From Patescibacteria group bacterium (GTDB lineage: Bacteria > Patescibacteriota > Patescibacteriia > JBDRGY01), in NCBI GenBank assembly GCA_043817315.1, contig JBDRGY010000006.1, forward strand, positions 18,077-82,076: a DNA stretch of 64,000 nt, written 5' to 3'. Position numbers and translations under genes: made by a program. Shown here piece by piece: positions 3,830-31,875 of the stretch (position 1 is its first letter; every line of letters starts with the position of its first letter). The notes below the pieces were generated by a model. It made no database searches and was not told where the DNA came from. It saw only the letters and a list, made by a program, of their open reading frames with translations.

Positions 3830-5665
3830 TTAATCTACTCTGGTGACTAAGCCGAAATTACCCCCAGTGACTTCCATGTCATTTCTTAGCCAATCCAGCT
3901 CGAAGAGTTGATGATAAAAGCCGGGCTGTCTATTGAAGTAATAAAATTCAAAAGTGCCGATCTCGCCGTGTCTGACCACTTTCTCTTTTAATCGTATCTG
4001 GCCAATTGTACTGTTCCAGCTGCTGTCATAAAACAAGCTGGGCTTATAATTAAGATCGTAGATGTTTAATCTCATATTTTGATCCCAAATAGCCAGTCCG
4101 GTGTTTTTAAACTTAACCACGGCTTTGGGTCTCCAGGCGGATTGAATGGCTTGAGGGATATTGTGTTCTACTAGCTCTGCTTTAAAATGAGAATCCACTC
4201 TGGTCACTAAATCAAATTCGCCGTTAATCGCCTCTTGGTCCTCACAAAACAGCTTGAATATCTGTTTATAATTTCCAGGAGAATTGGGAGATTTTAGGTA
4301 AAAGGTAAAGGTGCCGGTTTGGCCGCTTTTTACCGCTTCTTCATTTAACACTATCTGGCCGTAGGGCGACGCCCAGGAACCGTCTTGATAAACTGAAGGG
4401 GCCAAGCCCAAGTCATAGATGTTTAAATGAGTATTGTTTTTAGTCCAAGTAACCACGCCTCGGTTCTGGAAACTAAAAGTAGTTTTAAGGCGAGCCCCGG
4501 TAAAAGTTGCCGACAGAACATCGTTGTCAATTAAATTACCGGCATAGTCAAAGCCAATCACATTTACCTTGATATTAAATCGGGTATCTGGGATTTCTTT
4601 ACCATCGTACATTAGATAGAATTCATCAGTAATCTCTAGTTGGTCAGCTGGTGCCTCGATAGTAAAAGAAATCTTGCCAATTTCTTGGGGAGCTACATTG
4701 GCAGTCAGTAAATCTATATGATTACCATCAGCGCTGGTCAATTGTAACAGGCTGTTACTGCCATAATCAGCTGAGGCCAGATACACTGTGTCTTCGAAAT
4801 AACGCCGCCAGGTGAAGTTGCCGGTGTTTTTATACTTAGCCCAGATAGTAGCAGTTTCTCCTGGCTCTAGGGTAATTTCCTTAGCACTCTGCTCGGTTAA
4901 TTCGGCCTTGGCTACCGGTATAAAGGATGCTCCGGTATCTTTAAGGCTTTGATACAGGGACAGGGCCGAAGATCTAATGCTGCTCAGCTTGATTTCTACA
5001 TTGCTACCAGGGCAAAGGGTGCAGTCCACGTCTTGGTGGCCAACTACGTTAGGCATATTGGCGATATCCCGCCAAGTTAGTTTGGCATTAGGATTAATCC
5101 CCAGGCTAGCTCCTTTGTGAGCGATTAATTTTACCAAGGCGTTAATCGCTTTCTGGCTAGGCTGGCTCTCTTCGTAATTCCCTAGAAGCGAAATACCGAT
5201 AGTGCCCTCATTAAAATCAATTCCTTCTTTGGATCCGCCGAAGCGCACTACGTTACAACCAGAATCTCTAAAGGCGTGAGCTCCGACCACTCCGTCTCCT
5301 CCCTTTCTTCCTTCATAAATATTTCCCTGGGAATCGATCAAATAGTTATAACCAATATCACCCCAGCCTAATATTTGAGCGTGGTAGTAATAAATAGCTC
5401 TGACTGTAGCTTCCGGGTTGTCACCACCGTTGGAGCCGGCTGTATGATGGATCACAAATTTTTGTGGTCTTTGATACTGCAAGGGCCAGATAGTATCCTT
5501 GTCCGAATCCAAAAGATAATCAGCATCAGCTTCCCATTGCTCTCTGGTAATTATAGTTAACGGGCTAGCTGCTGCTTCGGTTTTTTGAGGACAAAATAAA
5601 ACCGCTAATAAAATAGCGGCAAATATAACCAAAAATGGCTTGAATTGACTAAGGACTTTTTTCAT
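3830..5665 (-). CDS. secreted N-acetylmuramoyl-L-alanine amidase (Amidase_2/PGRP-type domain) with C-terminal tandem ~100-aa repeat domains
   Basis: N-terminal signal peptide. Amidase_2-like block IHHTAGSNGG...GWGDIGYNYLIDSQGNIYEGR. Two full and one partial repeat of a ~100-aa domain (…GQIVLNEEAVKSGQTGTFTFYLKSP…DLVTRVD). Confidence 0.75.
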   Translation of the reverse strand: MKKVLSQFKPFLVIFAAILLAVLFCPQKTEAAASPLTIITREQWEADADYLLDSDKDTIWPLQYQRPQKFVIHHTAGSNGGDNPEATVRAIYYYHAQILGWGDIGYNYLIDSQGNIYEGRKGGDGVVGAHAFRDSGCNVVRFGGSKEGIDFNEGTIGISLLGNYEESQPSQKAINALVKLIAHKGASLGINPNAKLTWRDIANMPNVVGHQDVDCTLCPGSNVEIKLSSIRSSALSLYQSLKDTGASFIPVAKAELTEQSAKEITLEPGETATIWAKYKNTGNFTWRRYFEDTVYLASADYGSNSLLQLTSADGNHIDLLTANVAPQEIGKISFTIEAPADQLEITDEFYLMYDGKEIPDTRFNIKVNVIGFDYAGNLIDNDVLSATFTGARLKTTFSFQNRGVVTWTKNNTHLNIYDLGLAPSVYQDGSWASPYGQIVLNEEAVKSGQTGTFTFYLKSPNSPGNYKQIFKLFCEDQEAINGEFDLVTRVDSHFKAELVEHNIPQAIQSAWRPKAVVKFKNTGLAIWDQNMRLNIYDLNYKPSLFYDSSWNSTIGQIRLKEKVVRHGEIGTFEFYYFNRQPGFYHQLFELDWLRNDMEVTGGNFGLVTRVD

Positions 5666-5688: not shown

Positions 5689-5717
5689 ATTATAGCGCAT
5701 TTTGACGGTTTTGTAAA
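5689..5717 (-). promoter_or_regulatory. sigma70-like promoter for the amidase gene (TTTACA-17-TATAAT on minus strand)
   Basis: Reverse complement reads TTTACA (5712-5717), 17-nt spacer, perfect TATAAT (5689-5694), about 25 nt before the ATG at 5665. Confidence 0.45.
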
Positions 5718-5729
5718 GGCCTGTGGTTT

Positions 5730-5759
5730 AAAAAAACCGCACAGAAAGATTCTGTACGG
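5730..5759 (-). terminator. intrinsic terminator of the GC-rich two-gene cassette (minus strand)
   Basis: Minus strand reads CCGTACAGA-ATCTT-TCTGTGCGG followed by TTTTTTT, immediately after the 73-aa ORF stop. Confidence 0.5.
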
Positions 5760-5773
5760 TAAGGGCTGACTAA

Positions 5774-5995
5774 TCAGCTCCTTGATGTCCTTAGTCCCTG
5801 GTCAATGTGGGACAAAGAAAGAGGCATGTCGTCTTCGGGAAACGGTGTCTCTTCAAGGGTAGGCGGTATCGGCTTGCCCAGCAGAGCTGCTTGGCGCTGA
5901 GAGTGCGCCAGAGCTCTAATTCGGGTGTGATCGCTCTTGGTCCCCTCTTTAGCTGTTTGCATTCCTCGATCCATCACTTCATCGATATCAGCCAT
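5774..5995 (-). CDS. hypothetical 73-aa protein, GC-rich cassette gene 2
   Basis: ORF preceded on the minus strand by AAGGAG SD (TAAGGAGTAATACAGATG). Acidic C-terminus. No recognisable family. Confidence 0.5.
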   Translation of the reverse strand: MADIDEVMDRGMQTAKEGTKSDHTRIRALAHSQRQAALLGKPIPPTLEETPFPEDDMPLSLSHIDQGLRTSRS

Positions 5996-6010
5996 CTGTA
6001 TTACTCCTTA

Positions 6011-6406
6011 TCACAGTCCCAGTTCATCAACGGTCTCAGCCACCGGAATCCATCTGGCCTGACCGACCGTTTCGACCGGCTGCGGCTGCTCGGTGCAGTT
6101 GTCCTGCAACAGCTGGTAAAGATCCGGTTCAGTGGTGAAGTAATCGAGTCCACCGGTCCACATCAGATAGCCCAAATAAACTTCCAGGGCCAGTATCTGT
6201 TCTGATCCTGAATACCCCCTGACAAAAAATCGGGGGGCGATAGGTACGTCGACTACGGGATCAAAGGCTGTTCTGGACTGCACTGCCTTGGTCACTTTGG
6301 CCAAAATAGCTGCATCGGTTATTACCATCTTGGGGGTCTGCTGATGCTCATAGGGCAACACTTTCCAGAACTCAATCCGGGTGATGGTCTGCCCATCATA
6401 CTGCAT
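6011..6406 (-). CDS. hypothetical 131-aa protein, GC-rich cassette gene 1
   Basis: Double SD (AGGAGG…GGAGGTCCAAATG). A promoter-like TTGACT-16-TATAAT sits upstream on the minus strand (-10 at ~6438-6443; the -35 falls inside the last codons of the 6466-7725 gene). No recognisable family. Confidence 0.55.
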   Translation of the reverse strand: MQYDGQTITRIEFWKVLPYEHQQTPKMVITDAAILAKVTKAVQSRTAFDPVVDVPIAPRFFVRGYSGSEQILALEVYLGYLMWTGGLDYFTTEPDLYQLLQDNCTEQPQPVETVGQARWIPVAETVDELGL

Positions 6407-6465
6407 TTGGACCTCCTTAGTTTTTGCCTCCTATAATGAACTTCTCTTGATTATATACTAAGTAG

Positions 6466-7725
6466 TTATTTAGTCAAAGATTTCTGATTCCACTGATAAA
6501 CAACTGCCATCATGCCCAATAGCAGCCAGAATAAGATGGCTAAATCATTTTTGAAATAGGGAACGTCGACCAGACCGTGGCCCAATAAACAAACCATAGC
6601 CGTCATCAGAGCAATGGCCCAGTTGAGCTCCACGTTCTTGGTCTTCAACAACCTGCGTGCCTGACGGAAGAACTGAATTATCAGACCGACAAAGACAATC
6701 AGGCCAAAGAGTCCCAATTCTACCCAGAAGTTCAAAACTACGTTGTGAGGATATAGTAAAAACTCGGTGTGTTTAATCAGCCGATACTGTTCATAATAAT
6801 GAGGAAAGCCGGCCAAGCCTGCACCCACCATTGGCCTGGCCTTCAATAGATTATAAGTGCCTTGCCACATTACTTTACGCACATCGCCGGAAACATCTGA
6901 GAAAGTAATCAGCGGCATTACATAATCTCTAGTTTGAGGAATGGCCAAAATTAATATTACCAGCACTAGCCAGGTGGCTAAAACCTTCTTCCAGTTGAAT
7001 AAGAAAAAGCTTAAAAAAACCATTGCCAAACCCAAACCCAGCCAAGCGCCCTGGGAAACCGAAGCCATGAGGGAAAAAATGCCCAAAATAACAATCATAA
7101 AACCCCACCAGAAATTGCGCGGGGTAAAGAATTTAACTCGGGCTGCCAAAGCAATAAATAGGGCGATGATAGGAGCGATTATTAATCCCAGGGCATTAGG
7201 ATAATCGTAGACCGAAACGATTCTACGGCCTTCTTCTGCCTGCCAGGGATCAGGAATGCCAACTCCGCTAAACATTTGGACTACCCCGTAAATTGATAAC
7301 CAAACTACCAAAAGGCCCAGAGCCCAGGCTATCATCTTTAACTGTTTCTTCTCCTTAATAACGTTGACTAAGACAAAAAAGAATAAGGCAGGTTCAATGA
7401 AATAGGCCTTAAGCAACCCTGAAGCTGACCTTAAGTCCGGTGACAAAAAAGTAGCCACAATCGCCGACAACAAGAAAATGACCGCAAGTAGCCAATTGGG
7501 CCAGATTATCTTTTCTTTATTTTTTACAGCCTTAAATAACCAGATCAGGAACAACAGCAGCAGCATTGCTTCCAGCAAAGTAAAGGGAAAGAAGTCATTG
7601 CTGTATCGAATTAAGTAAGTGGGCAGTAACAAAATAGTAATCGCCACAGCCCAATCGGTCCTGCGATAAGCAATAAAAGCATAGCACAGAGAAAAAGCTA
7701 TTAATAAAATTATTTGGCTAGTCAT
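6466..7725 (-). CDS. O-antigen ligase (Wzy_C) family polytopic membrane protein
   Basis: About 11 TM helices. Periplasmic-loop motif MVGAGLAGFPHYYE…YPHNVVLNFWVELGLFG is typical of O-antigen ligase/polymerase proteins. Confidence 0.6.
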   Translation of the reverse strand: MTSQIILLIAFSLCYAFIAYRRTDWAVAITILLLPTYLIRYSNDFFPFTLLEAMLLLLFLIWLFKAVKNKEKIIWPNWLLAVIFLLSAIVATFLSPDLRSASGLLKAYFIEPALFFFVLVNVIKEKKQLKMIAWALGLLVVWLSIYGVVQMFSGVGIPDPWQAEEGRRIVSVYDYPNALGLIIAPIIALFIALAARVKFFTPRNFWWGFMIVILGIFSLMASVSQGAWLGLGLAMVFLSFFLFNWKKVLATWLVLVILILAIPQTRDYVMPLITFSDVSGDVRKVMWQGTYNLLKARPMVGAGLAGFPHYYEQYRLIKHTEFLLYPHNVVLNFWVELGLFGLIVFVGLIIQFFRQARRLLKTKNVELNWAIALMTAMVCLLGHGLVDVPYFKNDLAILFWLLLGMMAVVYQWNQKSLTK

Positions 7726-13332: not shown

Positions 13333-15264
13333 ATGAAAATAAAAAGCAAAAAACAGAACTTTGTCACTTTTAAACAGTTAATTCAGATACTTCTTTTGGT
13401 AGCTTTTGTCGTAGCCGTATCTGGTATCTTACGCTTGGTGGAATCGATATTTACCGACGATGAAGTAATCGCCAAAGAGCCTGCCGAATCCATAACCTCT
13501 ACCCTGCAAACCGGTTATGTAGGTTATGGTTCCATTCTTCCGTTGCCTAATAACCCGGCAACAACTGCCCAACCACAGGTGTTGGGCATGGCTTTTGCCT
13601 CCCGAAGCGCCTCTACTGTTTGGCAGGCCAAAAACGTCGGCCAAATCGCTCCTGATATAAAGATACTACCAGGGCGCAGCCTGACCTTCTGGGTGGATTT
13701 TCAAAATGTTGGTAATACCACCTGGCGCAATGACGATGAACACTTTATCGCTATGAATGTTGACCAGCCAGCCGGCCGGCACAGTATTTTCCAGCATGAC
13801 TTTTGGTCTGAATCCTATAGGCCCTGCTCTATGTTAACTGACGAGGTTAAGCCGGGACAGGTAGGTCGTTTTCAATTCGCTATTGTGGCACCAGACAGAC
13901 CAGGCCAGTACTTGGAACAGTTCCACTTGGTAGCAGAAAATTTGATCTGGATCCCGGGTGGCAATTTTGTTTTGCCCATTACTGTCTTGCCTCATCCTCC
14001 GGCCTGGCAAGCTGAGCTAATTTACCGATCCTTTGAAGAAATCGAGATTGCGCCGGATGACGCCTTTACTTTCGAAGTAAAATTTCGTAATACCGGTACC
14101 GCCACCTGGTACAATGATGGCGATAACTTTATTGCCTTAAACCTGACCGGCCCCCCGGGTCGTCAAAGTTCTTTTCGGCATGATTTTTGGCCAGCTGATT
14201 ACCGGCCCTGTAAAATGCTAACCGATGAAGTAAGGCCTGGAGAAGTCGGTCGCTTCCGCTTTGCTATGCAAGTGCCGGATCAACCCGGTTTTTATTTCGA
14301 AGAATTTAACCTAGTAGCAGAAAACCTTATTTGGATTGAAGGAGGGTACCTGTCTTTACCCGTTACGATTAAGAACCCGACTACTCCGGCTAATGCCAAC
14401 CCGGAACAAGAAGATATTCGAGTCGGTTTATTCGATAGTGATGATTCTTTTCAATTAACTGCCAATAAGAACTTTAAAGTGGTCAATACTCACGGCACAA
14501 TTTTTGCCACCCTGGTTGGTGGTGCCCAGGTAACGGTTACTTTTGAAGATAATAAATACCATCTCGAATTACCCGGCACCACTAAAACCAGTTACTATCC
14601 TGTAAGATTTATTCCGGTCAAAGCTGAGACTATTTTTGAAATTGTCAGTTTTAAAAATGCTACTGCCTGGAATAGTGAGGTCAACGATAACCGATTTAGA
14701 GGAATTCTGGAGATTAATCACGCTGCCCCAACGGAGAAAACTTGGATAATTAACGAGCTGCCACTCGAACTTTACCTGCGCGGGGTGGCCGAGGCCGGAA
14801 ACGAAAATCCGGAAGACTACCTCAAAGCTCTGGTCATAGCTGAGCGGACCTACGCTCAGTATCATATCAACACCGGCACCAAGCACGCTGATGAGAACTT
14901 CACTGTTGATGCCACTTATGACCAGGTCTACCGAGGATATGGGTTTGAGGAGAGAGCCCATGTCATCGTAGAGTTGATTGAAGAAACTGAAGGCATGGTA
15001 GTAACCTATGATGATGAAGTAGTGGTCACCCCATATTTCTCCCGCACAGACGGACGCACCCGTTCCTGGGAAGAGGTTTGGTCTGGCGATCCCAAGCCCT
15101 GGTTGATTACAGTGCCTGACCCGGCTTGTGAGGGTATGGTAATGCTGGGCCACGGAGTCGGTATGTCAGCATATGGAGCCAGGGCCATGGCCGAAGATGG
15201 ATCAACTTACGACGAAATATTAAAATACTACTATACTGGTATCGAAATAGCAGACTTTTACTAA
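13333..15264 (+). CDS. SpoIID/LytB-domain cell-wall protein with N-terminal tandem ~100-aa repeat domains
   Basis: C-terminal SpoIID-like block ELYLRGVAEAGNENPEDYLKALVIAERTYA…GHGVGMSAYGARAMAEDGSTYDEILKYYYTG. Two N-terminal repeats (FQHDFWSESYRPCSMLTDEVKPGQVGRFQF… / FRHDFWPADYRPCKMLTDEVRPGEVGRFRF…). ATG at 13333 chosen over the upstream TTG at 13300. Confidence 0.75.
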   Translation: MKIKSKKQNFVTFKQLIQILLLVAFVVAVSGILRLVESIFTDDEVIAKEPAESITSTLQTGYVGYGSILPLPNNPATTAQPQVLGMAFASRSASTVWQAKNVGQIAPDIKILPGRSLTFWVDFQNVGNTTWRNDDEHFIAMNVDQPAGRHSIFQHDFWSESYRPCSMLTDEVKPGQVGRFQFAIVAPDRPGQYLEQFHLVAENLIWIPGGNFVLPITVLPHPPAWQAELIYRSFEEIEIAPDDAFTFEVKFRNTGTATWYNDGDNFIALNLTGPPGRQSSFRHDFWPADYRPCKMLTDEVRPGEVGRFRFAMQVPDQPGFYFEEFNLVAENLIWIEGGYLSLPVTIKNPTTPANANPEQEDIRVGLFDSDDSFQLTANKNFKVVNTHGTIFATLVGGAQVTVTFEDNKYHLELPGTTKTSYYPVRFIPVKAETIFEIVSFKNATAWNSEVNDNRFRGILEINHAAPTEKTWIINELPLELYLRGVAEAGNENPEDYLKALVIAERTYAQYHINTGTKHADENFTVDATYDQVYRGYGFEERAHVIVELIEETEGMVVTYDDEVVVTPYFSRTDGRTRSWEEVWSGDPKPWLITVPDPACEGMVMLGHGVGMSAYGARAMAEDGSTYDEILKYYYTGIEIADFY

Positions 15265-17007: not shown

Positions 17008-17112
17008 ATGTTCTTAGGTTACTTATCTTGATTTTATAATAGCATAAATCTAGATTTTTCTCACAATACCCCCTGGCTTGACAAGATAAAAGGTGGTGTT
17101 ATTATAGGCTTG

Positions 17113-17583
17113 CATTCAGGTCCTGGCTCGGATCTCGAGTGGCACGAGGGGGCTAGCCTCTCATCCTTACACTGAGGGGCTAGCAAAAAGACAACAAGAG
17201 CCATTAGCTCTTTTCAATGTTTCCGCGCGTGACGTCCTATCCTCTGGGTAGATCAAGTCTGCGTTGCGGGGGTCGGCATCTGTCTCCACCGGCTGTCAGC
17301 GCTAAGGTGCTGATTGGAACGGCGGCGGGTGCGCGACGGTCGCTGCCTAGCAGTCCTGTTGGGCTGGGTGGTGACAAAAACCTGCCTCTTGGAAACCGGG
17401 GGTTGACGAGAGGCAGGGAATTTTTCTCAGCACGGACGCTGAGTGTGTAAGTAGACATCCGCGACTCTGTCGCCGCGGTTCTCTCTTGCCATCCGGCTCA
17501 GCGTCCAAAAAAATAGATCGCCGTATGGGGGAGATGGGCGATCCAAAGAGGAGCCTTCATTACTTCAGCTCCTCTATTTTTTT
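17113..17583 (+). ncRNA. unassigned GC-rich structured-RNA candidate (~470 nt), with promoter TTGACA-17-ATTATA at 17078-17106 and terminator at 17547-17583
   Basis: About 60-67% G+C in sampled lines against an ~40% background. Only short, overlapping, SD-less ORFs on both strands. Consensus -35 with a good -10 upstream. AGAGGAGC…GCTCCTCT hairpin plus T7 at the 3' end. Confidence 0.35.
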
Positions 17584-17593
17584 ACCTTAAATT

Positions 17594-25909: not shown

Positions 25910-26824
25910 TTACCTTGTTCGGTAATTGGGAAGATCAACCACACGAGGCAAAAGAGTGTCTGCAACATGGATTGTTCCCGAAGTGATACCTTGATCGCTG
26001 CCGATAGTGGCATTGAACACCTTTACTTCCTGCTGCACATCTACCATGAGTGTCAATCTCTGGTAGTGCTCAGCAAGATGCAGAAGCGTGTACAGAATGT
26101 TGCCTGCCATCTTACCGAGCGAGGGAACGTCTTGCAGTGGATGAACCCGCTGATCAAGAAACACTTGAGTAATCCGCTCTGGACCGTACTCGAGCACTGC
26201 TTGAAGCAGTATGGCAACCTCCACACTATAGCCAGAATAGAAGGAAGCATTCTCGAGGAATTTACGAGTCCCAGCGTACTCCCCAGCTAAAGGCTGTATG
26301 AAATCAGTGGATTCAGGAAAGAGCATGTTGAGGAAAGGACGAACTAAAAGCTCTGTCACCCGAGCATCACCTTTGGGCCGCTTATAGTACCCCTTGGTAA
26401 AGACTACTTCGGGGTCCATTAAAAAGGGAGCGACAATTCCTAGAATGAAACGTGGATGGATGTTTTCTATGTCGGTGTCAATCCAGGCGATGACATCGCC
26501 AGTTGTGAAGTATACACTACTCCAAAGATTCCATCCCTTTCCCCTTGATAGAGGAATAGATATGATTCGGGCGGCATCCTCGTCTCGGATTATTCTGATG
26601 TCAAACTGAGAGCACACACCCAAAGTGTTGTCGGTGGATCCGCTGTCAAACACTAGGATCTCATCAATCAGTGGTTGACACGACATGGCACATTCAATGA
26701 CACGACCAACTGTTGCTTCCTCATTCCTAACCGGGAGGACTAAGCTGATCGTTATCTGCCGCTCTTGCTTAAGCGACAAGAGGTAAACCATGTCAGAGGC
26801 GTCTAGGTACGATAAATGTTTCAT
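25910..26824 (-). CDS. GT81 glycosyltransferase, glucosyl-3-phosphoglycerate synthase (GpgS)-like
   Basis: LPVRNEEATVG…VFDSGSTDNT…RGKGWNLW…DTDI…GYYKRP…VTELLVRPFLNMLFPE…PLAGEYAGTR…GYSVEVAILL is collinear with GpgS/MpgS-type retaining GTs. Confidence 0.7.
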   Translation of the reverse strand: MKHLSYLDASDMVYLLSLKQERQITISLVLPVRNEEATVGRVIECAMSCQPLIDEILVFDSGSTDNTLGVCSQFDIRIIRDEDAARIISIPLSRGKGWNLWSSVYFTTGDVIAWIDTDIENIHPRFILGIVAPFLMDPEVVFTKGYYKRPKGDARVTELLVRPFLNMLFPESTDFIQPLAGEYAGTRKFLENASFYSGYSVEVAILLQAVLEYGPERITQVFLDQRVHPLQDVPSLGKMAGNILYTLLHLAEHYQRLTLMVDVQQEVKVFNATIGSDQGITSGTIHVADTLLPRVVDLPNYRTR

Positions 26825-27990
26825 GGCTCACCCCTTATCATGGTACTACATACCTTACGGACAGCAGCGCAACAGATGTCAACGAAGTGACTGGTCACAT
26901 CAGGATTAGTGTACAGATTGAATAGAGATGCTGCCACTTGCTGTGAGTTTACGGGCCTGTTAAAGCCGGCAAATAGTGCAGTTTGAGAAAGCGCCAAGGG
27001 GTAAAGACAGTTAATCATGGCACCTTCAGCTCTGACGGCATCCAAAAACCAATTGCGGTGTTTCATCCAGACTACAGGAAGAGTTGCTGTCAGGCAGTGA
27101 TTAACATGTCCATTTGCGTCAGTTTGAAATTGAAGCGGCAGGTCGCTCAACTTATCCCTATATCGCCTGGCAATTTCACCACGACGGCGATTGAGTTCCG
27201 CGAGCTTGCGTAATTGGACAAGCCCAATTGCCGCTTGCAGTTCAGTCATCACGTAATTGTAGCCAATCTTGTCGTAGTCGTAAACAGTCAGATCATCACT
27301 GATTAATCCGTGTCGGGTCAACGATCTGCACCGCTGAGCCAACTCTTCATTTCTGGTGATAATCATCCCGCCTTCACCACAGCTCATGTTCTTGGTCTGG
27401 TAAAAGCTGTAACAGGCTATATCACCAAAAGTGCCGACTATCTGTTCGCCAATAGTAGCGCCATGAGCTTGGGCACAATCTTCGACCAGCCATAAATCAT
27501 GTTCTCTGACTAGAAGAATGATCTGGCTCATCTCAACTGGGGCACCATAGAGGTGGACCACAATTACTGCCTTGGTTCTGGCAGTTATCTTGGAGCTAAG
27601 GTCCTCGACCGATAGGTTGAAAGTTGTGGGGTCGACGTCGCAGAAAACAACTCGCGCCCCGGTTTGTAAAACTACTGATGCTGTGGAGACAAAGGTTAAA
27701 TCTGGCACAATCACCTCGTCTCCAGGTCCTAGCTGCAAAACGTCAACAGCAGTATGTAGGGCAGTAGTACCGGATGTAGTGGAGATAGCAAAAGGGACTT
27801 GATGGTAAGCAGAGAACGCCTGCTCAAACTGCTGGACCATCTCGCCCATACCCGCTCTTGAAACTACGCCTTTTCCCATTACCTCCCATACTGCCTGCCG
27901 TTCTTCTTCACCGAAGACCCGGCCCCGTTTGAGGCCTTCTGGATAAACAGCTGATCCGCCGTTTATCGCCAGAGAAAGTCTTTCGCACAT
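26821..27990 (-). CDS. DegT/DnrJ/EryC1/StrS-family PLP-dependent sugar aminotransferase
   Basis: Family block FYQTKNMSCGEGGMIITRNEELAQRCRSLTRHG with a conserved Lys region. Confidence 0.85.
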   Translation of the reverse strand: MCERLSLAINGGSAVYPEGLKRGRVFGEEERQAVWEVMGKGVVSRAGMGEMVQQFEQAFSAYHQVPFAISTTSGTTALHTAVDVLQLGPGDEVIVPDLTFVSTASVVLQTGARVVFCDVDPTTFNLSVEDLSSKITARTKAVIVVHLYGAPVEMSQIILLVREHDLWLVEDCAQAHGATIGEQIVGTFGDIACYSFYQTKNMSCGEGGMIITRNEELAQRCRSLTRHGLISDDLTVYDYDKIGYNYVMTELQAAIGLVQLRKLAELNRRRGEIARRYRDKLSDLPLQFQTDANGHVNHCLTATLPVVWMKHRNWFLDAVRAEGAMINCLYPLALSQTALFAGFNRPVNSQQVAASLFNLYTNPDVTSHFVDICCAAVRKVCSTMIRGEP

Positions 27991-27993
27991 TGT

Positions 27994-29169
27994 TTACTCC
28001 TTAATCGTCAGAGCGAAGCTTTCACCAAGAGGAATGGGATTAGCTCCAATCAGCTCACAGATTGTCTGACCCAGATCGGCAAAACTAGCTCTAGTTCCCA
28101 GATTGGAGCCAATTTGGTGACTTCCATTGAGCACCAAAAGAGGTACGTATTCCCGAGTATGACCTCTTACAACAAAAACTGGGTCACAACCGTGATCGGC
28201 CACGATAAACAGTAAATCATCTTGACCGATAAGTTGTAACAATTCTCCCAACCTATCATCAAAGTACATGATATCACGAGCGTACTGGTTAGGCTTATTA
28301 CCGTGTCCGGACATGTCAAAATCCGGGACTACGAACATTGAGACACCGCTATGGTTCTTTCCCAGGTATTTACAAACAGAATCCATGATACCGGCAGAAT
28401 CCATGATACCGGGAATTATAACCGTTACGAACTCCTTCCCGATTATGGAGGTGAGGTGTTCTGTGGCTATAAACGGTACACCAACCTCTTGCATCCTTTG
28501 AAACAGATGTTCCTGACTTCTATCGAGAGGAACAACAATATCCGTCCGGTTCTTGGTACGAATGAAGCTTCCTTTCTCACCGATGAAAGTACGAGCAATA
28601 ATTCTTGCTACGTTCTTCCCGACGAAAAACCTGGACATCTTCCAGGCGATTTCGTGCAATCTCGCCGGAGGCATCACGTTCTCGTGAGCTGCTATCAGAA
28701 CTACGCCGTCATCACAGGTATAGACGATTGGCTGACCAGTGGCATAGTGTTCATCAGCGTATTCATCAAATACCCTGAAACCCGATACATAGGCGTTGCA
28801 GAGGGTTTCCGTACCCAGGACCTGTTGCATTTCACGCACCAAACCAACTGACATTCCCGGATAGAACGACGTGAATCGTTCTTTATAAATAACACCTGCC
28901 ATTTCCCAGACACCAAAGAAAGTGTCGTTACCTGAGGTGACCTCGGCCATACGTCCGTAATGGGCTAAAGGTTTATCAGCCGTTGGTATATTGCTGATGC
29001 CAACGATATTGCCAATACCCAATTTCTCGAGATTGGGGACTCGAAATCTTGGATGTGCTTGAGCTGCATGATGGAAGGTATGTGCGCCAACGCTCTTATA
29101 GTCTGCCGCGTCTAGCTGAGCGCCGATGCCGACGCTATCCATCACGAGGATAATGATACGTCGGAACAT
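27994..29169 (-). CDS. phosphopentomutase (DeoB)-like alkaline-phosphatase-superfamily phospho-sugar mutase
   Basis: IIILVMDSVGIGA…, DFDMSGHGN…, FIVADHGCDP…GHTREYVPLLV are collinear with DeoB. Start moved to the internal Met MFRRIIILVMDS, which has an SD. Contains an 18-bp in-frame tandem duplication at 28377-28412. Confidence 0.75.
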   Translation of the reverse strand: MFRRIIILVMDSVGIGAQLDAADYKSVGAHTFHHAAQAHPRFRVPNLEKLGIGNIVGISNIPTADKPLAHYGRMAEVTSGNDTFFGVWEMAGVIYKERFTSFYPGMSVGLVREMQQVLGTETLCNAYVSGFRVFDEYADEHYATGQPIVYTCDDGVVLIAAHENVMPPARLHEIAWKMSRFFVGKNVARIIARTFIGEKGSFIRTKNRTDIVVPLDRSQEHLFQRMQEVGVPFIATEHLTSIIGKEFVTVIIPGIMDSAGIMDSVCKYLGKNHSGVSMFVVPDFDMSGHGNKPNQYARDIMYFDDRLGELLQLIGQDDLLFIVADHGCDPVFVVRGHTREYVPLLVLNGSHQIGSNLGTRASFADLGQTICELIGANPIPLGESFALTIKE

Positions 29170-29191
29170 CACTCTTTTCCTTTCCGGCCTT

Positions 29192-30274
29192 TTAGCCAAT
29201 TCTAATCGGCAGACCGCTGGTAGCTGACAGATAAATCGCATCGATGATGCTCATTAGCCGACAAGCCTCAAAGGGTGTAGTCAACGGCTCAGCCTTGCCC
29301 TGTAGTGTCTGTACGAAGTTGACTGCAGCAGCTACACGCCCCATCGTACTGTCGAAAGGCACGGTGATGCTCTGATCGTTTGGTTGACCATTTTCCTGAG
29401 AGTAAACCTCACAGGTACCAGTAATGACCTCGCTAGTGTGATCCTGAAACAACCTGCCAACCCTCCCTCCGGCTTTCTGTCCCTGGAAGGTAACAAAGCA
29501 CTGTTCTTCTCGAACCATCTCGGCCCAAGAAGTATGGAGGCTAAGCACCTGTCCGCTTTCGAAAGTTACGATTGCGTGAGCACTAGATTCAACATCCGTA
29601 ATACCGTCTCCGTTCGGAACTCCGTAGGAACCCCGGCGCGTGGGGTCATCCATAAAGCAGTTGAAGATTTGACCCAACACATGTTTCGGCCTGGGATAAC
29701 CCATGAAATAGAGCGCCAAGTCTATCATGTGAAGTAAGTCTATCAGAGCTCCACCGCCAGCTACTTTTTGATTGGTAAACCAGTTTTCGAAACCCGGAAT
29801 ACCAGATCTACGAACCCAAACAGCCTGGGCGGAGTTAATCCGTCCAAAAAAACCACTCCTAATGCGACAAGTGATCTCCTGTGATTCTGGTCGTGCACGA
29901 TTGTTGAAGTCAAACAGCAGATGTTTACCAGAAGCTTCGGCAATTTTCATCATCTCCTGAACTTCCGCAGAGTTCATGGCCGGCGGCTTTTCACAGAATA
30001 CGTGCTTTCCAGCTTGTAGCGCCTGGATAGCCAACATTTTGTGAGACACCGGCGGAGTGAGAATACTGATGGCGTCAATTTGTCCGGACGCCCTATCCAG
30101 CATTTCTTCAAGAGTGTTGAAAGTTGCCAGAATACCGTAAGTCGCAGCTGCTTTCTGGGCAGCTGCTTGGTTTGTATCGACAACGCAGGTTATCTCCGCA
30201 CCAGCTGAACGAAATCCGTTAGCTTGGTATTTGAGCATTGCGCCTGCACCGACAATACCGATTTTCCAAGACAT
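29192..30274 (-). CDS. Gfo/Idh/MocA-family NAD(P)-dependent sugar oxidoreductase
   Basis: N-terminal Rossmann KIGIVGAGAMLKYQANGF…ISILTPPVSHKMLAIQALQAGKHVFCEKP. Start at MSWKIGIVG with an AAAGGA SD; the ORF-track start further upstream overlaps the next gene. Confidence 0.8.
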   Translation of the reverse strand: MSWKIGIVGAGAMLKYQANGFRSAGAEITCVVDTNQAAAQKAAATYGILATFNTLEEMLDRASGQIDAISILTPPVSHKMLAIQALQAGKHVFCEKPPAMNSAEVQEMMKIAEASGKHLLFDFNNRARPESQEITCRIRSGFFGRINSAQAVWVRRSGIPGFENWFTNQKVAGGGALIDLLHMIDLALYFMGYPRPKHVLGQIFNCFMDDPTRRGSYGVPNGDGITDVESSAHAIVTFESGQVLSLHTSWAEMVREEQCFVTFQGQKAGGRVGRLFQDHTSEVITGTCEVYSQENGQPNDQSITVPFDSTMGRVAAAVNFVQTLQGKAEPLTTPFEACRLMSIIDAIYLSATSGLPIRIG

Positions 30275-30287
30275 CTTTTTTTCCTTT

Positions 30288-31094
30288 CTAAGCCTTGGTA
30301 CAGACGAATGTTCCGCGTGACCTGTCCAATATGATCGGCTTTTCTTGGTCAATCATCAATCTCCTGATCTCTGCAGCTAAGGCAAGCTTAAGATCTGCAT
30401 CATTGGTCGATTCTTGAAAGCATGGCAGGGTAGTATAGTACGACATAAAGCCGTCTGCGTCCGGAAACACCAATTGAAATCCATAGAAATGATATTCTAC
30501 TTCTCCGAAAAGTCCATTCAGATACTCTCTGGCATTGTTGCAGTGGAAAGGTGAGCGAGAAAAGCGCACGTTAGTTTCAATACCAACTTGTGCTATTGCC
30601 TCCTGATGAGAGATCCTAAGAAGATCGTCCTCAAGGGTCTTTACACCCGTAGTGATGATGACTTTTCCTTCCTGTCTGACTACTCGAGCTGTTTCGTTCA
30701 ATCCTCTATCAAGGTCGCCGACGTGATTGAGCACATGCTTAGCAACCACCACATCAAATTGACCATCCCCGAAGGGCAAATCTTCAATCGATGCGATAAC
30801 ACATACTGGCGTTGCGATTGTGTTACAAACTCTCTGGCGGGTAATTTTCAATAGGTCTTGTGAGATGTCTACGGCAAAAACTTTCCCGCCCCTGTTCAGC
30901 CGTTGGCTGATGATGGCAACGTCTTTCCCTGTTCCCGAGCCGATGTCTAATACTAGCTCATCACCTTCAAGGTCGATAAAATCGATTCCATACCTGCCAA
31001 CACCCACGCCGTATCTATCCCAAGCAAGTTCTCTGTTGAGCAGATTTCGGGCGACACCGTACTGAATTCGCGGATCACTGTACTGGATCCTCAT
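30288..31094 (-). CDS. class I SAM-dependent methyltransferase
   Basis: Motif I VLDIGSGTGKDV, then FAVDIS…, consistent with the Methyltransf_11/25 fold. Confidence 0.75.
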   Translation of the reverse strand: MRIQYSDPRIQYGVARNLLNRELAWDRYGVGVGRYGIDFIDLEGDELVLDIGSGTGKDVAIISQRLNRGGKVFAVDISQDLLKITRQRVCNTIATPVCVIASIEDLPFGDGQFDVVVAKHVLNHVGDLDRGLNETARVVRQEGKVIITTGVKTLEDDLLRISHQEAIAQVGIETNVRFSRSPFHCNNAREYLNGLFGEVEYHFYGFQLVFPDADGFMSYYTTLPCFQESTNDADLKLALAAEIRRLMIDQEKPIILDRSRGTFVCTKA

Positions 31095-31800: not shown

Positions 31801-31875
31801 TGGTACCGCCAAGGGGAATCGAACCCCTGTTTTCAGGATGAAAACCTGATGTCCTAACCACTAGACGATGGCGGC
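31801..31875 (-). tRNA. tRNA-Glu, anticodon UUC, CCA encoded
   Basis: Minus strand: acceptor GCCGCCA/TGGCGGT, D GTCT/GGAC, anticodon stem TCAGG/CCTGA with loop TTTTCAT, T AGGGG-TTCGATT-CCCCT, discriminator A, CCA. Confidence 0.85.

Follow-up and report, generated by a model that had tools for sequence, protein, structure and literature searches.

A probable horizontally acquired two-gene operon between a Wzy gene and an amidase gene in a Patescibacteria genome

Phage morons are independent accessory transcription units that have been described for HK97 and HK022 (PMC3594210). In type II toxin–antitoxin (TA) pairs, the antitoxin has a structured DNA-binding part and a disordered C-terminus that binds the toxin (PMC10135005), and the partners are subject to 'mix and match' between pairs (PMC7192599). 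A further arrangement is that of acr genes, which typically precede a conserved gene, aca, for a repressor (PMC8633003). Here, we focus on a small GC-rich cassette that recalls each of these systems in part. It lies on the minus strand of a 64,000-nucleotide stretch of contig JBDRGY010000006.1 from a Patescibacteria group bacterium (the whole stretch is termed the window, and its coordinates are used unless another locus is named), and it encodes proteins of 131 and 73 residues, Orf131 and Orf73. Comparison with related loci indicates that the segment at about 5718–6477 is very probably a horizontally acquired, autonomous two-gene operon, inserted between the 3′ end of a Wzy gene and the promoter of an amidase gene. 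For the explanation as a whole, in which the inserted operon also works by a TA-like mechanism, we estimate a probability of about 0.35.

Of the four features that define a phage moron, the cassette has three (a promoter and terminator of its own, a deviant base composition and absence from a relative), and like a moron it is apparently built for expression independent of the flanking genes. The fourth feature, residence in a phage or prophage, is missing. The cassette sits within a chromosomal cell-envelope cluster, has no relative among phages or in IMG/VR or BFVD, and contains two genes instead of the usual one. With TA and acr–aca operons it shares the architecture, whereas comparisons of sequence and fold give no match. 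We therefore describe it as, in all likelihood, a horizontally acquired autonomous accessory cassette made up of two essentially orphan families.

The cassette and its junctions

The cassette and its immediate flanks comprise the following features, in the order of transcription.

6466–7725, minus strand: Wzy gene (Wzy_C/O-antigen-ligase-like), with its stop codon at 6466–6468; upstream flank of the cassette
5729–6477, minus strand: cassette transcription unit, with promoter, two open reading frames (ORFs) led by Shine–Dalgarno (SD) motifs, and intrinsic terminator
6450–6477, minus strand: cassette promoter TTGACT-16-TATAAT (−35 box at 6477–6472, −10 box at 6455–6450), matching 11 of 12 consensus positions
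6474–6457, minus strand: inverted repeat ACTAA-N8-TTAGT with 5-bp arms, within the spacer of the cassette promoter
6432–6427 and 6418–6411, minus strand: SD motifs of orf131, read from the sequence as AGGAGG and AAGGAGGT, respectively
6011–6406, minus strand: orf131 (NCBI tag ABIB97_03755), 131 residues, the variable first gene of the cassette
6009–6004, minus strand: SD motif AAGGAG of orf73, inside the 15-nt spacer after the orf131 stop
5774–5995, minus strand: orf73 (NCBI tag ABIB97_03750), 73 residues, the conserved second gene of the cassette
5729–5760, minus strand: intrinsic terminator, with an 11-bp stem (5760–5736), a 3-nt loop and T7; −15.2 kcal/mol, z = −4.2
5718–5728, minus strand: last inserted bases beside the junction with host DNA, from alignment with the related loci L085 and L086
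5689–5717, minus strand: amidase promoter TTTACA-17-TATAAT, in the flank outside the insert and conserved with L085
5665–3830, minus strand: amidase gene (Amidase_2 match, E = 3.6e-19), downstream flank of the cassette

The initial annotation had placed a self-contained unit at 5730–6465, with a near-consensus promoter, strong SDs on both genes and its own intrinsic terminator, and had assigned a separate promoter to the amidase gene. Each of these signals is confirmed by the features listed. The segment itself is real, but its upstream end has to be moved from 6465 to 6477, because the −35 box and the end of the Wzy gene (its last codons and stop) overlap. Over the 64 kb, five promoter matches of at least 11/12 positions were observed against 1.3 ± 1.2 expected in random sequence, and all five sit upstream of a gene or candidate RNA. 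The SD of orf131 is the longest among 47 window genes checked; an SD of at least 5 nt of AAGGAGGTGA stands upstream of only about eight of the 47, a survey in which gene starts were called crudely as the first ATG and which needs checking. Most genes of the genome appear to lack an SD. From the consensus signals, and only from these, strong expression of the cassette is inferred.

The base composition of the cassette also departs from that of its surroundings. The G+C content is 53.0% in orf131 and 53.2% in orf73, while 42 long genes of the window have 43.4 ± 2.6% and reach at most 49.6%. The 633 bp at 5774–6406 have 52.6% G+C against 43.0% for the window, a value reached by 0.06% of 633-bp windows; the maximum for this length (52.9%) falls in the cassette, so that the span is essentially the GC-richest of the 64 kb. 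The initial annotation was thus right about GC-richness, although its 53–62% G+C describes only the upper part of the range, since the 60-nt lines of the cassette run from 45 to 62% with a mean of about 53%. The G+C content at third codon positions (GC3) is 0.61 in orf131 and 0.51 in orf73, compared with 0.45 ± 0.04 in native genes. Synonymous codon scores (z = −0.4 and −1.2, respectively) are both inside the native range.

Relatives of the locus were sought with three anchor genes. The Wzy gene yielded two loci, L085 and L086; the L19 gene recovered 80 distant Patescibacteria loci, of which L083 alone is syntenic; and the amidase gene found no relative in GTDB genomes or JGI metagenomes. Locus L085 has the gene order of the window, with identities of 71% for Wzy, 61% for the amidase, 53% for a glycosyltransferase, 63% for the second Wzy and 61% for a small membrane protein. 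Here, the Wzy gene is followed directly by the amidase gene, whose ATG lies 26 bp past the Wzy stop, and there is no cassette. The amidase promoter (within L085 6855–6911) is contained wholly in the Wzy gene, at its 3′ coding end, and the TAA stop of that gene forms part of the −10 box TATAAT. In the window, this promoter region is conserved at 5717–5689 on the amidase side, and homology on the Wzy side stops at TCTTT(G/A). The junction alignment therefore leaves an extra window segment of about 0.76 kb, at about 5718–6475. Alignment with L085 and L086 places a CTTT microhomology at both junctions of the insert. In the window lineage, the Wzy C-terminus was both shortened and altered by the insertion.

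Locus L086 is a 1.3-kb metagenome contig from a closer relative than L085 (Wzy identity 81%), and it contains a variant of the cassette at the same junction. The order of elements is a TTGACA promoter, an SD, an ORF for a 41-residue peptide, a second SD and a homologue of orf73. The peptide (MDWKGVWESLRVAFPIGLAALSLFALCAYIYRRQVVDKRRA) has one hydrophobic span and a basic C-terminus. In base composition, too, the two cassettes are alike, since that of L086 has 55.9% G+C beside a Wzy gene of 39.6%. The more distant locus L083 (identities of 65% for L19 and 38% for Wzy) shares the synteny of tRNA, L19, membrane protein and tRNA-Ala, and has neither amidase nor cassette. Two further loci, L001 and L002, are 99.9% identical to the window with no single-nucleotide polymorphism inside the cassette; they are uninformative because they belong to the same population as the window.

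Since the cassette is absent from L085 and L083 and takes a variant form in L086, it is lineage-specific, with its second gene retained and its first gene exchangeable; absence from the one locus and variation in the other mark it as an accessory, moron-like insertion. Together with the deviant composition and SD use, this comparison upholds the idea in the initial annotation of a transplanted module between the glycan cluster and the amidase gene, and disposes of the alternative named there, a cassette conserved at normal GC content in all relatives. A related view would be that these are native, vertically inherited genes of odd amino-acid composition, which were lost in L085. The synonymous codon scores are compatible with this, the cassette is present in two lineages (those of the window and L086), and a deletion between the two CTTT microhomologies could yield the arrangement in L085. 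We consider it very unlikely, however, given the GC3 values, the recurrence of the GC excess in L086, an SD use atypical of the genome, the replacement of gene 1 between the two cassette-bearing lineages, the lack of a cassette in L083 as well as L085, and the lack of any further relative in 5.8e9 protein clusters.

Gene content between tRNA-Ala and the glycan cluster varies more generally. At L085 8799–9719 an extra ORF for a 306-residue coiled-coil-like protein follows the amidase gene, and at L083 10946–11905 an ORF for a multi-pass membrane protein and one for a 43-residue lysine-rich protein replace the amidase gene and cassette. An inverted repeat with 13 of 17 positions matching (5767–5783 and 6460–6476) brackets the two ORFs of the window in the manner of transposon ends. 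It was judged a chance match, because it leaves out the terminator, which is necessarily part of the insert, and because similar repeats are common in the region.

The two proteins and their relatives

NCBI annotates both products only as hypothetical proteins of a Patescibacteria metagenome-assembled genome. The initial annotation had listed two minus-strand ORFs of 131 and 73 residues without a recognisable family, with which both the coordinates and the empty profile scans agree. Sequence comparison identifies both ORFs as real genes. The opposite view, that there are no protein genes here and that the segment is a structured RNA, or that a plus-strand ORF of 132 codons at 5807–6205 is the real gene and the minus-strand ORFs are due to chance, is barely credible. 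GC-rich islands of AT-rich genomes are often RNA genes, the antisense ORF does exist, and both proteins are near-orphans. Against this, both minus-strand ORFs have protein homologues and the antisense ORF has none, and the core of orf73 has diverged in the synonymous manner of a coding sequence. The antisense ORF, which the initial annotation had named as the real gene in a case that would refute its view, was rejected: it has no SD, its codon use is aberrant (z = −2.9), and it has no significant match in Pfam, PHROGs, PADLOC or NCBIfam. A structured RNA was likewise discarded, with no Rfam match and a fold z of only −1.8 for the 685-nt transcript.

Orf131 is predicted to be an acidic (isoelectric point, pI, 4.4) cytoplasmic protein with no signal peptide and no transmembrane (TM) or hydrophobic segment. 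HMMER, run in full over 1.84 billion representative proteins, found a sole relative, the 122-residue protein P0003 (26% identity, E = 1.3e-4). The alignment is colinear from Met1 to about residue 120, and the motifs ITx(I/V)xFWxVxP and PxAPRFFxRxxSG are common to both proteins. A single-sequence structural model of Orf131 was poor. AlphaFold2 with the two-sequence alignment gave a moderately confident model (predicted local distance difference test score, pLDDT, 70; predicted template modelling score, pTM, 0.66), in which a beta-beta-alpha-beta5-alpha core at residues 1–106 is followed by a disordered acidic C-terminal tail. This model was used for Foldseek, which returned a best E value of 0.26 and TM-scores of at most 0.32 against the PDB, and nothing below E 0.1 among the viral models of BFVD.

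The gene for P0003 lies at locus L003, which has 61% G+C and where the composition of this gene is native. The Orf131 homologue is there the second gene, behind an unrelated ORF of 207 residues (L003 411–1034) that contains the motifs GHVDIKIG...YGFYP and SHNCVTLALRAL. The series GHVD...SHNC presumably resembles the His...Cys order of permuted papain-like hydrolases; the 207-residue protein has no match in Pfam, NCBIfam, PADLOC, PHROG or the PDB. The same locus encodes an 863-residue protein with a sub-threshold match to the Por_Secre_tail domain of type IX secretion (23.2 bits; Pfam cut-off 27).

Orf73 is a further acidic cytoplasmic protein of about 70 residues, with no signal peptide or TM segment. 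Judged by eye, it consists of two short helices and a tail rich in Pro and acidic residues; the second helix is conserved and basic, with the Arg/Gln/His-rich pattern T-IR-LAH-QRQA-L-GKP. Its homologue in L086 is found at the orthologous position, is 46% identical over 54 residues (tblastn E = 1e-9), shares the initial Met-Ala-Asp and follows an AAGGAGG. The core is conserved between the two proteins and the tail is divergent. The 46% identity contrasts with 81% for the flanking Wzy. Between the two copies, the proportion of non-synonymous differences (pN) is 0.40 and that of synonymous differences (pS) 0.77, which is saturated, and different codons are used at 16 of 25 identical residues. The synonymous pattern in the core therefore implies that it is the protein, and not the DNA, that has been conserved. 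A nominal PADLOC match between Orf73 and type IV Cas6 (E = 1.8e-4) was set aside, as it covers only part of a 216-residue model and the L086 homologue does not show it.

Broader searches added little to these relatives. Pfam, NCBIfam, PHROGs and PADLOC contain no credible match for Orf131, Orf73, their homologues or the L086 peptide. Word-indexed searches of the 5.8e9 protein clusters, including one with a two-sequence profile, returned self-matches only, and all four locus proteins are singleton clusters. A sequence search of the PDB found no match, tblastn against phages and plasmids found none apart from one chance match at E = 0.8, and IMG/VR has no relative, whether searched with both alignments or with a degenerate DNA pattern of the Orf73 core. 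The remote-homology check proposed with the initial annotation thus gave one relative of Orf131 and the Orf73 homologue in L086, and assigned no family. Given the lack of relatives in these family, structure, phage, plasmid and viral collections, function can be inferred only.

Proposed function

Partners appear to be shuffled among three loci: the 207-residue protein is paired with an Orf131-like protein in L003, Orf131 with Orf73 in the window, and the 41-residue TM peptide with an Orf73-like protein in L086. The insulation of the cassette, its exchangeable gene 1, its fast divergence and its shuffled partners amount to selfish two-partner behaviour, for which reason a TA-like pair is favoured, comprising an effector and a neutraliser or autoregulator. 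As a mechanism, this is a tentative suggestion made by analogy. The conserved basic helix of Orf73 would bind the operon promoter or a common target, while its variable tail, acidic and rich in proline, would attach to the partner encoded upstream, whatever that is, and neutralise it. High but self-limited expression, typical of selfish accessory modules, would follow from the strong promoter and SDs.

The likeness to type II TA systems lies in two small, adjacent, co-transcribed genes with a 15-nt spacer, one promoter and one terminator. In the second product, which is acidic, a structured N-terminal part precedes a C-terminal tail that is probably disordered, as described for antitoxins (PMC10135005). 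Partners are shuffled between loci, as in known TA pairs (PMC7192599), and the distribution is patchy and consistent with horizontal transfer. Nevertheless, Orf131 matches none of the RelE/ParE, MazF/CcdB, PIN, HicA, Doc, GNAT and other toxin superfamilies and folds in Pfam, NCBIfam, PADLOC or the Foldseek comparison with the PDB, and Orf73, in the place of the antitoxin, has no recognisable DNA-binding domain. Type II TA operons in which the toxin gene comes first include higBA, hicAB and mqsRA, and SpoIISB of spoIISAB is a small disordered antitoxin.

Several observations weigh against the proposal of an inserted operon with a TA-like role. Neither protein matches a toxin, antitoxin, immunity or defence family in Pfam, NCBIfam, PHROGs or PADLOC, and Pfam and NCBIfam give no ribbon–helix–helix, helix–turn–helix, AbrB or Phd domain in Orf73 or its L086 homologue. 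The acidity of Orf131 is unusual for a type II toxin, and its model is unlike known toxin folds in the Foldseek comparison with the PDB. The pattern of a conserved and a variable gene comes from only two cassettes, one of which is incomplete, as the L086 contig ends inside the Orf73 homologue. Finally, L085 may have lost the cassette or may never have had it.

The closest rival is a pair of cargo and autorepressor, similar to a moron or an acr–aca operon, which differs from the TA-like proposal only in whether gene 1 harms its own cell. Here, Orf73 would repress the cassette promoter, and gene 1 would be cargo with a non-toxic accessory role; its product might inhibit a system of the host or of a competitor, counteract defence or modify the membrane. 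The variable first and conserved second gene are in keeping with this, and the moron description fits as well: the unit has its own promoter and terminator and a deviant GC content, and is absent between the same genes in a relative (PMC3594210). The resemblance to acr–aca operons consists of a hypervariable small orphan gene 1, known from two examples, a conserved small gene 2 and a strong promoter, in the order typical of acr genes and their downstream aca repressor gene (PMC8633003). Orf131 is small, acidic and orphan, like many inhibitor proteins, what is conserved in Orf73 is a helix rich in Arg, Gln and His, and the near-consensus promoter has a small inverted repeat in its spacer. That repeat, however, has arms of only 5 bp and is not found in the L086 promoter. 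Orf73 has no match to helix–turn–helix or other DNA-binding families, no relative occurs in phages, plasmids or IMG/VR, no mobile-element gene is nearby, no link to CRISPR-Cas or defence was seen, and only two cassettes are known. We regard the cargo explanation as doubtful, though a genuine contender.

The proximity of the cassette to the amidase gene, immediately downstream on the same strand, raises a different role, in which the pair would regulate, chaperone, inhibit (as an immunity function) or export the amidase, or act as a holin-like or lysis-control pair. The 41-residue peptide of L086, with its single TM segment and basic C-terminus, is superficially holin-like, and the gene for P0003 follows a 207-residue ORF whose motifs presumably resemble those of permuted papain-like hydrolases, although this neighbour matched no Pfam, NCBIfam, PADLOC, PHROG or PDB entry. 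In a holin–endolysin cassette the genes would not be divided as they are here, where a strong terminator and a separate, ancestral promoter intervene; a TM segment is found only in gene 1 of L086, and Orf131 and Orf73 have neither a TM segment nor a signal peptide, whereas the amidase is secreted. The orthologous amidase gene of L085 has the same promoter and no cassette. This, with the terminator between the units in the window, makes a role as partner of the amidase unlikely.

A bolder reading is that Orf73 founds a family of its own, made up of small helical 'anchor' proteins whose genes accompany a hypervariable accessory cassette in Patescibacteria, much as aca genes accompany anti-CRISPRs or as antitoxins recur in shuffled TA pairs. 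The upstream partners, Orf131 and the 41-residue peptide of L086, would then represent effector or toxin families not described before, with an unseen fold. This reading as a whole seems rather unlikely.

Genomic surroundings and significance

The neighbours of the cassette are chromosomal genes. These include FtsH, an RluA-type pseudouridine synthase, L19, five tRNAs, the downstream amidase (a secreted N-acetylmuramoyl-L-alanine amidase) and the glycan cluster, which contains two Wzy-like genes, a PMT_2 transferase, a GT4 transferase, a flippase and a SpoIID-like protein. No mobile-element or phage gene was found among the surrounding genes. The amidase (3830–5665) and the SpoIID-like protein (13333–15264), at opposite ends of the glycan cluster, both have Ig-like (N_BRCA1_IG) domains. 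The 3′ coding end of orf73 (5787–5796) and codons 3–7 of the amidase gene (5647–5656) contain the arms of a perfect inverted repeat of 10 nt; it is probably meaningless, as chance alone would give about 0.7 repeats of this kind in 1.2 kb. A tRNA-Ile with the anticodon TAT (UAU) is encoded at 1865–1941, and also in the distant relative L083 (6550–6626). Most bacteria decode AUA with a lysidine-modified CAU tRNA instead of a UAU tRNA.

Two other parts of the window stand out in composition. The second GC-richest spot is a gene-free gap of about 590 bp at 17008–17593 (about 52% G+C), with a candidate plus-strand transcript at about 17105–17585 that ends in hairpin/T-run terminators. A TTGACA-16-TATTAT sequence at 17078 is among the five best sigma-70-like promoters of the window, and the predicted structure of the gap is very stable (z = −5.3 on the plus strand and −4.9 on the minus strand). 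The gap has no ORF longer than 77 residues, no Rfam match at E ≤ 1 and no tmRNA call, and is possibly an undescribed structured RNA. At 25910–31094 on the minus strand, near a tRNA-Glu (31801–31875), five genes have the highest G+C of the long genes (47–50%), several of them with clear SD motifs, unlike most window genes. The five genes may form a second block of distinct composition or foreign origin.

Orphan gene pairs of this kind are common in metagenome-assembled genomes, and the cassette does not overturn current understanding; it does hold two protein families that are near-unique in current sequence space. If the inserted operon is correctly read, foreign 'plug-in' operons would still enter reduced Patescibacteria genomes at a defined junction and be replaced there. 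If Orf73 is indeed the constant partner of such operons, Orf73-like genes would offer a guilt-by-association route to the accessory and conflict genes of uncultured episymbionts.

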